Shown one piece after another: positions 43,827 to 60,539 of a DNA stretch of 64,000 nt (its first letter is position 1; the number at the start of each line of letters is the position of its first letter). Made by a program: the position numbers and the translations under genes. The notes below the pieces were generated by a model, which was not told the DNA's origin, did no database searches, and saw only the letters and a list, made by a program, of their open reading frames with translations. Origin of the DNA: a virus; the IMG/VR virus record IMGVR_UViG_3300021512_000004, positions 1 to 64,000 of that record; one strand, 5' to 3'.

Positions 43827-43937
43827 TCTTTGTTTGACTTTGTGTGAATTCACACAAGTAAAGAAGTAACTTTTGATTTGCCTTCCGAAAACAGACTCGG
43901 AAGGCAAATCCCAACAAAATCAAGAGGTTAAAACGAA

Positions 43938-44519
43938 ATGCAAATACATGTTAATGACTTAAAAGCAGCTCTACACACTTGCGCGAAAAATGACGTTCGT
44001 TATTACTTAAATGGCGTTCTAATAAAGGCGGAAAACGGCAAGTTGGCTATCGTGTCAACGGATGGAAGCATTCTTTACTACTCCTGTAATCCGGTAGGGG
44101 ATTGTGAAGACTGTGAAATTATCATCCCAAGTGACGCAGTGAAGATGGCCACAACGAGCCTTCTTAAACACCAGGAGTATGTCGAATTCAGCCCTACAGC
44201 CAACACTTTAGGCCAGGTCACATTCAGCCCTGTAGCGGGGGAATATCCATATTACAAGAGTGTAATTCCGAAGCCATATGACATCTCTGAAGACAACAAA
44301 TCAGCAGATAGGTTTGACCCTCGTCTGCTGATGAGGGCGCATAAAGCTCTGGCTGCAAGTAACGGAGCTTCAGCCAACAAATGTCTTCCCTACCCTCTGC
44401 GTCACAACAAATTAAGCCATGGGGCGGCAATTATGCAGGGGAAAGATACCTCAAGATTCGTAATCGTCATGCCATATAAGGCAAAAGACATTAAGCCGTT
44501 TTTAGGTGTGGAGGTTTAG
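43938..44519 (+). CDS. DNA polymerase III beta-clamp-like protein (single module)
   Basis: A.NDVRYYLNGV, VSTDG, G.YP.Y..VIP and VIVMP motifs. Confidence 0.7.
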   Translation: MQIHVNDLKAALHTCAKNDVRYYLNGVLIKAENGKLAIVSTDGSILYYSCNPVGDCEDCEIIIPSDAVKMATTSLLKHQEYVEFSPTANTLGQVTFSPVAGEYPYYKSVIPKPYDISEDNKSADRFDPRLLMRAHKALAASNGASANKCLPYPLRHNKLSHGAAIMQGKDTSRFVIVMPYKAKDIKPFLGVEV

Positions 44520-55959: not shown

Positions 55960-56021
55960 GGCCGCTCCCAAAGAGGGGTAGGAGCGGCCCTACTAACATT
56001 GGAACTCCGCAGAGGGGGACA

Positions 56022-56356
56022 AGGCGCTCTGCGGAGTAGAAAGTATACCTTACAGGTTATGTACGTTCAATAGGAGTGGAGTTATGGCAAGCATTTTTGT
56101 AATGACAGACCCTATGTCTGAAGTTTACTACTCGCTGAAGGATAATCGGGTTAGAAAGTTCAACCTTCATGGGAAAACGCTGTATGACGAATATAAAGGG
56201 GTTTCTGCGGAAGGGTGGGAGGATGCGCTAGTAAAGTTCGTGAAACAGCAGCGATTGAATATAGATGGAGGGGAAGGACTTCCCTCATTCGTGTACGGCC
56301 TGATTGATAGAGGACTGCTGGAAGACTAACAGGCGCTCTGCGGAGTAGAAAGTATA
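56022..56356 (+). repeat. 26-bp direct repeat flanking ORF 56084-56329
   Basis: AGGCGCTCTGCGGAGTAGAAAGTATA at 56022-56047 and 56331-56356. Confidence 0.85.
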
Positions 56357-57384
56357 TATCATAAGGTAGGAGGGAGCTAGAGATGAGGTATAAAACTGAA
56401 AATAAGCACATAGATGAGATTAGAAGCGGAGACTACGTGTTACATAATGAGGAGGTGGTAACTGTAGGGCGGAGGGATATAAAACTGAGCGAATTTATGG
56501 GAACAACTCTGTTCGGAGACTGCTATCACTTGGGAACAAAGCCAGTGAAAAAGGTGACAATCCTTGGGAGTGAAAGACTATGAGCATCAAAACAACATGT
56601 CAGAATGGACTGACACTATGATTGAGGACAAGATGGCGGAACCGTTTTTCCGGCACAGTATGTTTAACAATTACACTCTGCCACGTTAGCTGAGTTGCTA
56701 TCAATTACGGAGGGATAATTATGTGCTTGATAACCGACGTGTATGATGCTGGATACGACTGTAGTAAAAAGGAGAAAGGCTATAGCCCAGAAGGTAGCGC
56801 CGCAGTAGCCCTGGCAAAACATGAGATAGCCTGCCTGAAACTTGAAAGCGAGGGTTATTTTGCAAAGATACAAAAGATGAGGGCTACTCTAGAGTTGACG
56901 AAGAGATCTATTATCGACAGGAGGCTTAATATGCCAGAGACAATGGCCGTGATTGAGGAGGCTTTAGCCTCGCAGCGGTCGATTAAGCTACCATTTAATT
57001 TTGGATAAATCCACGGGGGTTGCAGATGAGACTAAAAATTAAACAGAGCCAGAATTTAAAAGAAGGGGAGGTAAGGGTTTGCAAAGGGTTTCTATGGTTG
57101 CCTAAATACCTGGATAGAGAGTGGAGGTGGCTTGAGTTTGCAGAATGGGCACAAATGACAATGCGACTACCCCCACTTGCGGTTGAAGTCGGTTGCTATT
57201 CCCCAGGGCAAACTCCCCTTCAATGGGTGAGTACGGAGTGGAGGTAACCCCCGGGCTGGTTCCTTATAGTTGTAAATTTACTATTTGGAGCGTTAAACGT
57301 AAGGAATTTTACGCAGCTCTAACACCAGATTCAGCTGCGCGCTTGGCGCGTCCGCTGGAATTAATGTTAGATTGCGATTGATTT

Positions 57385-57624
57385 TTGGAGGATGAGAGAG
57401 TGGATAAAGCAAAAGAGATTCGCAGGGGATTTGTTGATATTTGGAAATGGATAGGCTCGCCAGATTGTTGGTTTTTAATAATGGTTACGTTTTGCCTCTG
57501 GTGCATATTTTTAGCTCCAGAATCAGCTATCGCTGGGCTTGCGAATACATTTATTGTTATCGGGCTGGTTATAATTTGGCATTTGGCAAGAATCGCAAAA
57601 TCCTTAGAGGACAAGGCAATCTAA
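57385..57624 (+). CDS. Cassette ORF: small membrane protein with 2 TM segments (may start at GTG 57400)
   Basis: Stop TAA lies within the TAAC of attC2. Confidence 0.6.
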   Translation: MEDERVDKAKEIRRGFVDIWKWIGSPDCWFLIMVTFCLWCIFLAPESAIAGLANTFIVIGLVIIWHLARIAKSLEDKAI

Positions 57625-57671
57625 CAACCAGCATAACGGGTGAGCGGATAATTTAACTGAGGATGGTGAGC

Positions 57672-58067
57672 ATGGAAAACCAGAACGAACAGAAGCAACA
57701 AGAAACCAGCGGTGAAGAAGCGAATCCGGTTGATGTAATTGTTAGTGCTCGCTGCCCGGACTGCGCTGCTCAGCCTGGCATGCTGCACAAGCTGGGCTGT
57801 GATGTTGAAAAATGCCCCGAATGCGGCTGGCAATATATCAGCTGTGACTGCCCCGCCGAAGAGACAACGGCTCCCCGCCTCCTCTGGTCTGGCGAATGGC
57901 CAGGGATAAGGGAGTGCCGCGAATTTGGATGGTATTCAAAATTGGTTTCTGGGCGCGGCTGGGTGAGCTGTGACAAAAGCGAGCCTGGCGCAAGCGAGAG
58001 CCTCAACCGCCTTGCCGTTGACGCCACATGGGATAAAGAAAAAGGGCGCTACATACTAGAGAGCTAA
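57672..58067 (+). CDS. Cassette ORF: Cys-rich (Zn-binding-like) protein starting inside attC2
   Basis: CPDC..H..GCDVE.CP.CG.Q.ISCDC motif; GAGG RBS in the attC loop. Confidence 0.7.
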   Translation: MENQNEQKQQETSGEEANPVDVIVSARCPDCAAQPGMLHKLGCDVEKCPECGWQYISCDCPAEETTAPRLLWSGEWPGIRECREFGWYSKLVSGRGWVSCDKSEPGASESLNRLAVDATWDKEKGRYILES

Positions 58068-58138
58068 CGCTCGCATAAACTGCGGAGCGTCAGCGGAGTC
58101 AGATTTTCATGCGATTGTTATAAATCTGGAGTAGAACG

Positions 58139-58384
58139 ATGGCAACAAACAAATACGATTTGGACACAGCTTACATCGGAAAAAACCTTAAAATATTGCA
58201 GCGGGATATTGAGCAATATACCCCTCAAGAGATGAGGACAGCTTTGAACAAGCTGGCAGACACGTGCCATAACTTTGCTAAGTGCGGTCGCTGTAGCGGC
58301 TACAACACGTCAACGATGCGACACGATGCGGCTCACTGGTTTTGCTATGACTGCGCCGAGAAGTACCCACTAAAAGCCTTATAA
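58139..58384 (+). CDS. Cassette ORF: Zn-ribbon protein
   Basis: GGAG RBS; CGRC and CYDC; stop lies within attC4. Confidence 0.65.
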   Translation: MATNKYDLDTAYIGKNLKILQRDIEQYTPQEMRTALNKLADTCHNFAKCGRCSGYNTSTMRHDAAHWFCYDCAEKYPLKAL

Positions 58385-58458
58385 CGCTCAATTAAACGGT
58401 TGCGTAGCAATCCGGTTTAAATTGCTTGTTATATTTAATATTAATTCGGAGAAAAATC

Positions 58459-58707
58459 ATGAGTGAAATTGAAACAGTTGCAGCGAGTCTCACTATTGAA
58501 ATGAATGTCACATGCCCTAATCCTGACTGCGGGGATTATATAGATTTGCTGCGATCAGAGTATACGAACGGGGTGGATCATAATGAGGACGGGGGTTTGC
58601 TGCGCCAGATGTTCCCTGAAAATCATAGTAATGAAGATTTTGAGTGTGATGATGTCATTTGCACAAAATGCAAAACAATGTTCAATGTGCGCGAGCTGGA
58701 ATGGTAG
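58459..58707 (+). CDS. Cassette ORF: Zn-ribbon protein
   Basis: GGAG RBS; CPNPDC and CTKC. Confidence 0.65.
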   Translation: MSEIETVAASLTIEMNVTCPNPDCGDYIDLLRSEYTNGVDHNEDGGLLRQMFPENHSNEDFECDDVICTKCKTMFNVRELEW

Positions 58708-58767
58708 TAAATATAACACCCTGCATAACGAGTGAGCGTGGACAACAAAATGAATGAGGTGAACACG

Positions 58768-59070
58768 ATGGGCAAGAACGAAGCCACGAAGACAGAACCC
58801 AGCGGCGAAGAAGCGAATCCAGTTGATGCACTTGTTATGCGGCAACTAGATAAAATCACTGGATATTTTCAGCCTAAACGCACGGAAACGCTGCGCGATG
58901 AAGCCCTGCCATTTGTTGGTCGGCTATTAACATTCGAGGCTCTTTGGCTGATAGATAAAGAAGATGGGGGCCCTTACGTCGGACAATGGGCGATGCGCCC
59001 GATTAATGAAGCAGGGGGCTGGTTGCCAATTGGGTGGGTTCCCGAAGAAGACATTAGACCTGCTACATAA
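58768..59070 (+). CDS. Cassette ORF starting inside attC5
   Basis: GAGGTG RBS in the attC loop; N-terminus homologous to the ORF at 57672. Confidence 0.65.
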   Translation: MGKNEATKTEPSGEEANPVDALVMRQLDKITGYFQPKRTETLRDEALPFVGRLLTFEALWLIDKEDGGPYVGQWAMRPINEAGGWLPIGWVPEEDIRPAT

Positions 59071-59152
59071 CACCCGATTCAGCTGCGCGTTTGGCGCGTC
59101 CGCTGGAATTAATGTTAGATTGCTAATTAATTAATTATGGGGCGATAACGAG

Positions 59153-59341
59153 ATGGCCGAAGTGAAGTTCTGGTGTGACAGCGGGGCAAACATCCATTCT
59201 TGCAATACTGAAACAGTTGATACCGTTGATGATTTAGGGTTAGACGAAGGGGAGTGGGAAAAGCTCACTGATGACGAAAGGCACAAGCATGTTAGGGATT
59301 GGGCTAATAACTACATAGAGATGGGGTGGGCAGCAATCTAA
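59153..59341 (+). CDS. Cassette ORF: small acidic protein
   Basis: Stop lies within attC7. Confidence 0.6.
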   Translation: MAEVKFWCDSGANIHSCNTETVDTVDDLGLDEGEWEKLTDDERHKHVRDWANNYIEMGWAAI

Positions 59342-59383
59342 CGCCCACATAAGCGACTTGATGTGATTGTTATAAATGAAACT

Positions 59384-59533
59384 ATGAAAAAGTATATTTG
59401 CGTTAGGTGTTTAACCGTAATGAGCCGGGTTGAGCTTAGAGACGGAGCAAAACTTAAAAAGATTTCTATTGAGTTAAGCCGGAAAATTAAAATGTGCAAG
59501 TCTTGCACATGCCGGACTTTCTATAGTATTTAA
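59384..59533 (+). CDS. Small CxxC...CxxC protein after the last attC
   Basis: Manual translation MKKYICVRCLTV...MCKSCTCRTFYSI. Confidence 0.45.
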   Translation: MKKYICVRCLTVMSRVELRDGAKLKKISIELSRKIKMCKSCTCRTFYSI

Positions 59534-59725
59534 TTTGGGAGCAAGTAAACGTAAGTAAAAAGACAGTTTTGAATGCTCCGAAGGTGAGCGTAGAGATAAC
59601 TATTGTGTATATTGCAATGGGAAATATCGAGGTGTCCAGAGCATTACGACAATCACGAACAATCTAAGAAAGGCGCTACCGTCTTTCAAGGCAACATAAT
59701 TAGATTGTTTTAAAGAGGGTAAAAT

Positions 59726-60013
59726 ATGGGAAAAGTTTTAAAGTTCAAACGAAAGGTTTCATTCTCAAAGGAGAAGATGATCTCTGCAAATCCTAACGTA
59801 AAGGTAAAAGAAGAGGAGATGGAGATTTATCAAGAATTTGGAAAGGTTTACGCAGATGTATTCGTAAAGCCTCATGGGTTCTACTCCGGGGCGTTCTTAT
59901 TAAACGAAAACACCTTGAAGATAGAGGAGATGGTGAGCCTCCTGCCAAGGAGGTTCTTCCTGTCACAGGTCAGGGCAGCCCAGGAAAAGTGTTGGGCGAA
60001 AGATTGGATTTAA
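59726..60013 (+). CDS. Hypothetical protein
   Basis: GAGG RBS. Confidence 0.55.
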   Translation: MGKVLKFKRKVSFSKEKMISANPNVKVKEEEMEIYQEFGKVYADVFVKPHGFYSGAFLLNENTLKIEEMVSLLPRRFFLSQVRAAQEKCWAKDWI

Positions 60014-60041
60014 ATTGCAAGATGTAATAGTATAACCTTTC

Positions 60042-60539
60042 ATGCGAGTATTGGAGATTAACATGGTGGACAAAGTAAACAACCCTTTAACACGGCAAGA
60101 CTTTACAACTGGAACCTTACCTGGGGAGGTAGCCAAAGACGGTGAGGAGATTGGAGGAGTTAGTAGAACTTTGTTAGGGGCGGAAACCATCAAGGCTAAG
60201 GACGTAGCTGAGTTTGAAAGAAAGGAAGAGTTCGAGCCTGTAAGGAAGTCATCACCGTCAAAGATTTTTTACAATCAGTTAGCCGAGTCTTTGAATAAAA
60301 TGAAAGTAGGGGATATACTCTTGTTCCCTCTACCTGAGAACATGCTTGCTCATAACTTAAAGAAAGTTATGAGCAACAGAGGGGCAAGGGACGGAGTAGA
60401 TATCCAGTATGGTAGAGCAAGGAAAGACTTCCAAGGAAGGACTCTACCAATGAAGCTACGACCGATGACAGTAAAGAAGCTGACAGCCTGCATCATCACA
60501 GTGTTCCCATTAGCAGTCAAAAACAAAGTCAAAGAGTAG
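60042..60539 (+). CDS. Hypothetical protein
   Basis: ORF; probably starts at MVDKVN after a GGAG RBS. Confidence 0.55.
   Translation: MRVLEINMVDKVNNPLTRQDFTTGTLPGEVAKDGEEIGGVSRTLLGAETIKAKDVAEFERKEEFEPVRKSSPSKIFYNQLAESLNKMKVGDILLFPLPENMLAHNLKKVMSNRGARDGVDIQYGRARKDFQGRTLPMKLRPMTVKKLTACIITVFPLAVKNKVKE

Follow-up and report, generated by a model that had tools for sequence, protein, structure and literature searches.

The attC-like cluster and its two long sites

The window, that is, the whole stretch of DNA that we analysed, is the first 64 kb of the IMG/VR virus record IMGVR_UViG_3300021512_000004 (74,740 bases, estimated to be ca. 90% complete). The minus strand of this phage holds the structural genes, and a rightward early/replication region ends in a gene for a primase-like protein of 933 aa. 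Between 57320 and 59375 (within 2.1 kb) there are seven bulged hairpins of the form TAAC...GTTA that resemble the attC recombination sites of integrons, each located between two small plus-strand open reading frames (ORFs); the stop codons of all seven upstream ORFs fall at or just before the TAAC. We have numbered the sites s1 to s7. The interpretation that we favour on sequence grounds, with a probability of roughly 0.65, is an integrase-less attC cluster (CALIN) with mirrored cassettes, in two of which (cassettes 2 and 5) the gene starts within the loop of the site. The early region of the phage would then carry seven integron-type attC sites with the crossover at AA|C in the left core, directly after the TAA of each gene, and each cassette would comprise an attC with its gene behind it. 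The ribosome-binding site and the ATG of cassettes 2 and 5 would be supplied by the variable loop of a long attC, and translation would pass through the right arm (L', R') into the body of the protein, giving it a disordered N-terminal extension of ca. 24 residues.

The two long sites, both on the plus strand, are s2 (57619-57748, ahead of the body of protein A) and s5 (58711-58841, ahead of the body of protein B). They measure 130 and 131 nt from core box to core box (123 and 124 nt from TAAC to GTTA), inside the published attC range of 57-141 bp (Nivina 2016). The left core of s2 is ATCTAAC, in which the TAA at 57622-57624 is the stop of the upstream ORF, and its right core, at 57741-57747, reads GTTAGTG; one G is bulged (GTT[G]ATG), and the arms align as TAACAA / CAT-AAC. 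In s5 the left core TAAC is at 58714-58717 and the right core GTTATGC at 58834-58840. The core boxes pair as R boxes over 7 bp in s2 (CTAACAA with TTGTTAG) and 6 bp in s5 (ATAACA with TGTTAT), with both partners of the outer pair changed between the sites (C-G in s2, A-T in s5). A second candidate for compensatory change (CGGAT/ATCCG vs. TGGA/TCCA) was dropped, as it depended on a shift in alignment register. A bulge follows after 3-6 L-box pairs in all seven sites of the cluster, on the same arm in every case; it is a single G in s2 and in s5, and s1, s6 and one site of a related phage (L004c) have two bulges 6 bp apart, like the attC of aadA1.

The loop of s2 contains a GAGGA Shine-Dalgarno motif (57659-57663) and an ATG (57672-57674), and that of s5 contains GAGGTG (58756-58761) and an ATG (58768-58770), with GAGG placed 8 nt before the ATG in both; an earlier in-frame ATG of s2, at 57663, overlaps the Shine-Dalgarno motif. 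Neither site has any match in the phage genome (74,740 bases) other than its partner, at 74% identity over 126 nt (E 2e-13) and 74% over 80 nt when ungapped. Both arms and the GAGG-ATG module are common to the two, and the homology stops within 1-3 nt of GTTA. The preliminary description of this DNA had claimed as much: two related long attC sites with a ribosome-binding site and ATG in the loop, translated in frame through the arm and the GTT into unrelated proteins. All of this was borne out. The ORF list gives MENQ...VDVIV-SARCPDC from ATG 57672 and MGKN...VDALV-MRQLDK from ATG 58768, and the bodies that follow are unrelated (BLASTP E 4.2).

Protein A (57672-58067, plus strand) has 131 aa, of which residues 1-24 come from the loop and right arm of s2, the GTT being codon 24. 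The body is a Cys-rich CPDC...CDVExCPxCG domain that begins at about residue 26. There is no ATG, GTG or TTG between the GTT and the invariant Cys28, and a start at the next Met would drop two invariant cysteines (Cys28 and Cys31). Since no other start precedes these cysteines, the loop ATG at 57672 is the only plausible one, and judging from the sequence we regard its use in vivo as near-certain. In the AlphaFold model (mean pLDDT, the per-residue confidence score, of 87) residues 1-25 score 50-60 and the rest above 90; the leader is accordingly modelled as a disordered extension outside the fold. The body (57744-58064) represents a widespread family, with hundreds of members in phages, prophages and metagenomes, whose alignment has 19 invariant columns (Cys in seven of these) and a conserved WPGxxECREFGW motif. 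It has no Pfam family, and a Foldseek search with the model of A gave no PDB match. Against cultured phages tblastn retrieved only distant mycobacteriophage and Arthrobacter phage proteins, aligned from residue 27. No attC array was present among the best 30 bacterial loci of body A that were scanned, and no bacterial integron source was found. Free-standing phage homologues of the body begin 2-10 codons ahead of the invariant Cys and are preceded by a Shine-Dalgarno motif of their own. Protein B (58768-59070, plus strand) has 100 aa counted from the loop ATG. Its distant phage homologues have ordinary starts, and neither tblastn against cultured phages nor a genome scan gave a match.

The five other cassettes are built in a simpler way, with a gene that has its own ribosome-binding site and ATG on the 3' side of the hairpin. 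All are on the plus strand. Site s1 (57320-57372) precedes a membrane-protein ORF of 74-79 aa that ends at 57624; s3 (58065-58123), whose TAA is the stop of protein A, precedes ORF 58139-58384; s4 (58382-58434), with three bulged right-arm bases, precedes ORF 58459-58707; and s6 (59068-59120), whose TAA is the stop of protein B, precedes ORF 59153-59341 (DUF7167, phrog_8831). The last, s7 (59339-59375, ahead of ORF 59384-59533), is a miniature attC-like site of 34-41 nt, below the published attC range. Sites s1 and s6 are 91% identical. We have used as a measure of folding the predicted probability of R-box pairing (pfold), which for the control aadA1 attC is 0.83-0.92. The short sites s1 (0.97), s4 (0.95), s6 and s7 (0.74) gave values of 0.74-0.97, with a fold in which an unpaired spacer separates the R stem from a bulged L stem. 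The low value of s3 (0.004) comes from its left half (58065-58097), which forms a 13-bp hairpin of its own, GCTAACGCTCGCA...TGCGGAGCGTCAGC, more stable than the attC fold.

In a scan for bulged hairpins anchored on AAC and GTT, five of the seven sites exceeded the score threshold, and the remaining 72 kb contained only three others; shuffled genomes gave 1-5 matches per whole genome. One TAAC...GTTA candidate far from the cluster, at 43867-43953 in the early region (score 19-21), may be a chance match given this shuffled rate. An Rfam scan of 56000-60500 gave nothing relevant, Rfam itself having no attC family. No HUH/Y1 transposase, which could be an alternative enzyme acting on such hairpins, is encoded in the phage. 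Neither intI nor attI lies beside the array, as they would in a complete integron. The sequence GTTATAAAT was considered as a -10 box and found to be unsupported; a sigma-70 scan gave no plus-strand promoter in the array. The array has no blastn match among cultured phages, and in the relatives with 42% identity in the primase (L083-L086) the stretch around the primase gene contains no cluster of at least three such hairpins.

Orientation of the sites and the expected crossover

In all seven sites (7/7) the extra, bulged bases are on the right arm of the coding strand and not on the left arm as in canonical cassettes. Right-arm bulges are likewise found in the related sequences L004 (three sites), L090 (one) and L091 (four), L004c being a near-perfect mirror of the aadA1 site. 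We took two controls for the polarity. One was the 60-nt aadA1 attC, which we recovered with 100% identity from plasmid R100, where it directly follows aadA1 and is opposite intI1; the two extra bases on its left arm in the coding strand, C and A, are separated by 6 bp (GTT[C]AAGCCG[A]CGCCGC). The other was a set of three attC sites that we located in Tetrasphaera phage TJE1, all with left-arm bulges and at the 3' ends of their genes. It is the extrahelical bases that set the choice of strand: they guide the integrase to the bottom strand, where cleavage takes place at AAC (Nivina 2016). By this comparison all seven sites of our phage appear to be mirror-oriented, with the bottom-strand layout on the coding strand. 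The crossover would then be expected at TAA|C in the left core, directly after the upstream stop (57624|57625 in s2 and 58716|58717 in s5), and with the crossover at the left end each attC would belong to the cassette of the gene behind it.

Two independent traces in the family of body A agree with a left-end crossover. Homologues are alike up to "..RFIL.AN" (GCTAAC read as Ala-Asn) and continue into unrelated tails that resemble translated left arms of attC, and in very divergent relatives the distance from the attC to the first Cys of the body is fixed at either 12 or 16 nt. The reverse assignment, in which the sites have canonical polarity and belong to the upstream genes with the crossover at G|TT, would make A and B start-less genes that borrow an upstream start like aacA4. 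There is such a precedent in class 1 integrons (PMC8876359), and upstream stops lie within TAAC in many canonical cassettes as they do here. Nevertheless, the bulges are the mirror image of those in aadA1 and TJE1 in 7/7 sites, the attC keeps its fixed distance to body A across divergent relatives, and the tails of the A homologues diverge just after AAC, so that we consider canonical polarity highly improbable.

Many homologues of body A (P0003-P0018, and also at 2850-2892 of L004) have no stop in the core box at all; the AAC is read as Asn and tails of 1-30 residues extend into the next attC. C-terminal tails can therefore be encoded by the site, as N-terminal leaders can.

Loop starts in relatives and the competing explanations

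Long attC sites whose loop holds a Shine-Dalgarno motif and an ATG recur in L004 (an IMG/VR phage), L090 and L091 (a metagenome contig), and the long sites of L004 (L004b) and L090 are predicted to fold well, with pfold values of 0.97 and 0.85. The relatives keep the reading frame even with a GTT-to-Cys spacing of 16 nt in place of 12. In L091 loop starts are found in up to three cassettes in a row, one of them a Lar-like ORF that matches the Pfam Lar family only from residue 17. A second leader family, VAGPDGSxLSxGL, is common to this Lar-like protein and to a homologue of body A (P0018), and here the homology ends at GTTAG.

Two of these relatives present further overlaps between sites and genes. 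At 880-930 of L091 the TGA stop of cassette ORF2 overlaps the ATG ATG of body A in the attC loop (GGAATGATGG). Here the attC codes for the final 12 residues of the upstream protein as well as for the beginning of the downstream one, and from this arrangement the two genes look translationally coupled. At 1840-2892 of L004, a GC-rich phage, a YfbR-like HD-domain gene is free of stops through the long attC into body A, giving a frame of 350 aa; the loop also has its own Shine-Dalgarno motif and ATG.

The preliminary description had gone further than the presence of loop starts and proposed that one attC family acts as a portable start and N-terminal tag, joined to different coding bodies. Part of this stands. 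The start in the loop is real, A having no other, one family does precede two unrelated bodies, and the VAGPDGSxLSxGL family repeats the situation. What is not supported is a site that is the attC of the preceding cassette and lends its start to the next one, for the right-arm bulges (7/7) indicate that each attC travels with its own gene; and a tag on protein B is unlikely, as discussed below. With the crossover at the opposite end, ordinary integrase action would not move leaders between bodies. A portable module would require exchange at the right core (G|TT) as well, for example by recombination of the non-preferred strand, which takes place at low frequency (Nivina 2016), with selection keeping the in-frame products. 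The end of the s2/s5 homology 1-3 nt from GTTA ahead of unrelated bodies would fit this idea, as would the position of the native ATG of B directly after GTT and the second leader family on two bodies, with homology again ending at GTTAG. However, the end of R' is also simply the end of an attC, so that such breakpoints do not discriminate between models; the bulged bases favour the other strand at all sites, and the likeness of s1 and s6 continues for 9 nt beyond G|TT, so that at least in this pair the breakpoint is not at the crossover. The portable module seems to us unlikely, as does its full form, in which some attC families of phage-borne, mirror-oriented arrays have evolved into expression heads (a ribosome-binding site, an ATG and an in-frame arm) and rare exchange at G|TT places start-less or 5'-trimmed bodies behind them. 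If it were true, recombination sites would also create new expressed cassettes and chimeric proteins, which would be a route for cassette birth.

The mirrored cluster with loop starts accounts for the likeness of s2 and s5 in another way. Sites s2 and s5 would represent one attC family, either by common origin or by copying between sites of one array, and each body would have been joined to a start-bearing attC when the cassette was born, or a neighbouring site would later have been copied over its own. In sedentary chromosomal integrons the long attC sites, such as the Vibrio cholerae repeats, measure ca. 120-130 bp, and the attC sites of one integron are normally alike. Sites s2 and s5 are of similar length and are also homologous copies beside unrelated genes in one array, and the simplest reading is that these and the sites with the VAGPDGSxLSxGL leader are attC families like the homogeneous sites of one chromosomal integron, with a start module in the loop. 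We infer that the leader peptide has no role beyond starting translation. For protein A we regard the proposed mechanism as well supported; for protein B it is probable but functionally doubtful.

Several observations weigh against the interpretation that we favour. Neither the integron integrase (TIGR02249) nor a tyrosine recombinase (PF00589) was matched anywhere in the 74.7-kb record, which is ca. 90% complete. The polarity was derived from the position of the bulges in our own arm alignment and not from the models of IntegronFinder or HattCI. The leader family of s2 and s5 is known from two copies and one close relative (P0055), which was the only sequence retrieved by a 40-aa query; two DNA patterns for the GEEANPVD leader had no match in IMG/VR. 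In protein B the start of the family is the ATG at 58837-58839, directly after GTT, which 16 of 17 homologues use. Compared with P0055, 94% identical, the leader of B differs in 6 of 23 residues and the body is identical in 77 of 77 (p = 8e-5). Translation of the B leader may thus be irrelevant or absent. Finally, the pfold of s2 is 0.05 and that of s5 0.0002-0.01, compared with the 0.74-0.97 of s1, s4, s6 and s7, so that stable folding is not predicted for either; and the central ca. 90 nt of both are without structure, unlike the short neighbours (fold z-scores of +1.8 and +1.1). By these predictions s2 and s5 may have decayed with respect to recombination, even if they still serve to start translation.

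The points on protein B can be assembled into an explanation in which its leader is a by-product, B starting at 58837 or carrying a neutral extension, and s5 having received s2-type sequence by copying within the array. Besides the family start and the faster divergence of the leader, an open in-frame stretch of 23 codons would arise without selection about once in 10 (a rough estimate), and s2 is more closely matched by s5 (74% DNA identity) than by the leaders of orthologous A cassettes. On the other hand, it is ATG 58768 that is preceded, at 8 nt, by a Shine-Dalgarno motif (GAGGTG) while ATG 58837 lacks one, and the leader frame is open in P0055 too. We take the by-product explanation as a whole to be a minority possibility. 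B is, by its sequence context, probably made with the extension, but given the family start after GTT and the leader that diverges faster than the body, the peptide does not appear to be under selection as a tag, and a functional N-terminal tag on B is unlikely.

The folding values lead to a comparable doubt about the sites themselves. They might be coding 5' regions with attC-like half sites, fixed in the phage, that do not or never did work in recombination; their low pfold and unstructured centre, a phage without integrase, and the reduction that long loops cause in recombination from double-stranded DNA (Nivina 2016) would all be in keeping with this. Yet s2 and s5 do not differ from the five other sites in the layout of R box, spacer, L box and bulge, and they sit at cassette junctions, the outer R-box pair has changed on both sides, and relatives of the same design fold well (L004b and L090). 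We therefore think that this explanation is possible but improbable, about as much so as the by-product explanation for B, and keep the mirrored attC cluster as the better account. Little structure in the loop is what would be expected of a translation start region. A single stretch of DNA would be at once a recombination hairpin, a translation start region and a coding sequence, and the odd, unstructured loop would be due to these three constraints.

Comparison with known integron systems

Integrase-less attC clusters (CALINs) have been described in virulent phages, e.g., Tetrasphaera phage TJE1, and phage attC sites, those of TJE1 included, recombined with attI1 under the action of IntI1 (Qi 2023, PMC9892861). 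Our array resembles these in having small phage ORFs separated by attC hairpins in a phage without integrase. It differs from TJE1, where the attC is behind the gene and the bulges are on the left arm, in that the sites are mirrored and placed before the genes, two of them being coding and having a start in the loop. The layout appears to be a loop-start, mirror-oriented form of the phage attC clusters already published, and the feature itself is real. With the aadA1 cassette (In2, R100) it has in common the AAC...GTT cores, an unpaired spacer, a bulged L box and a stop in or near the core. The differences are that the gene is on the opposite strand with respect to the polarity of the attC, that there is no intI, attI or Pc here, and that the terminal loop, short or structured in canonical cassettes, is here a translation start region.

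Fusions of aacA4/aac(6')-Ib and other fused cassettes borrow their start from upstream sequence (PMC8876359). As in those fusions, the N-terminus of the protein here comes from recombination-site or neighbouring DNA and not from the 5' end of the ancestral gene. However, the aacA4 start lies outside the cassette and depends on the context, while the start in s2 and s5 would be within the attC of the cassette itself and travel along with it. Long attC loops are known to form branched structures (Nivina 2016), unlike those of s2 and s5, which are unstructured, A-rich and encode a ribosome-binding site, an ATG and ca. 12 codons. In the literature that we searched there was no attC loop encoding a ribosome-binding site, start codon and N-terminus, and no mirror-oriented phage array.

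The attC is usually treated as non-coding structural DNA behind genes. The annotation rules of ACID allow an overlap between ORF and attC of 15 bp at most, and genes that begin ca. 75 nt inside an attC would therefore be missed or given a wrong start. That phage cassette arrays can be mirror images of bacterial ones also has consequences for searches aimed at them. Where cassettes come from is an unsolved question of integron biology, and the junction between attC and body, which in B coincides exactly with the family ATG and in A lies just ahead of the first conserved Cys, would be a direct trace of cassette assembly.

An imperfect direct repeat borders the array on both sides, as ATTTGGAGCGTTAAACGTAAG on the left (57290-57313) and ATTTGGGAGCAAGTAAACGTAAG on the right (59533-59558). 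This could be a trace of the recombination that imported the array or, at the right, attI-proximal end, an attI-like remnant. Upstream of the array there is in addition a perfect direct repeat of 26 nt (56022-56047 and 56331-56356, 309 nt apart) that flanks ORF 56084-56329.

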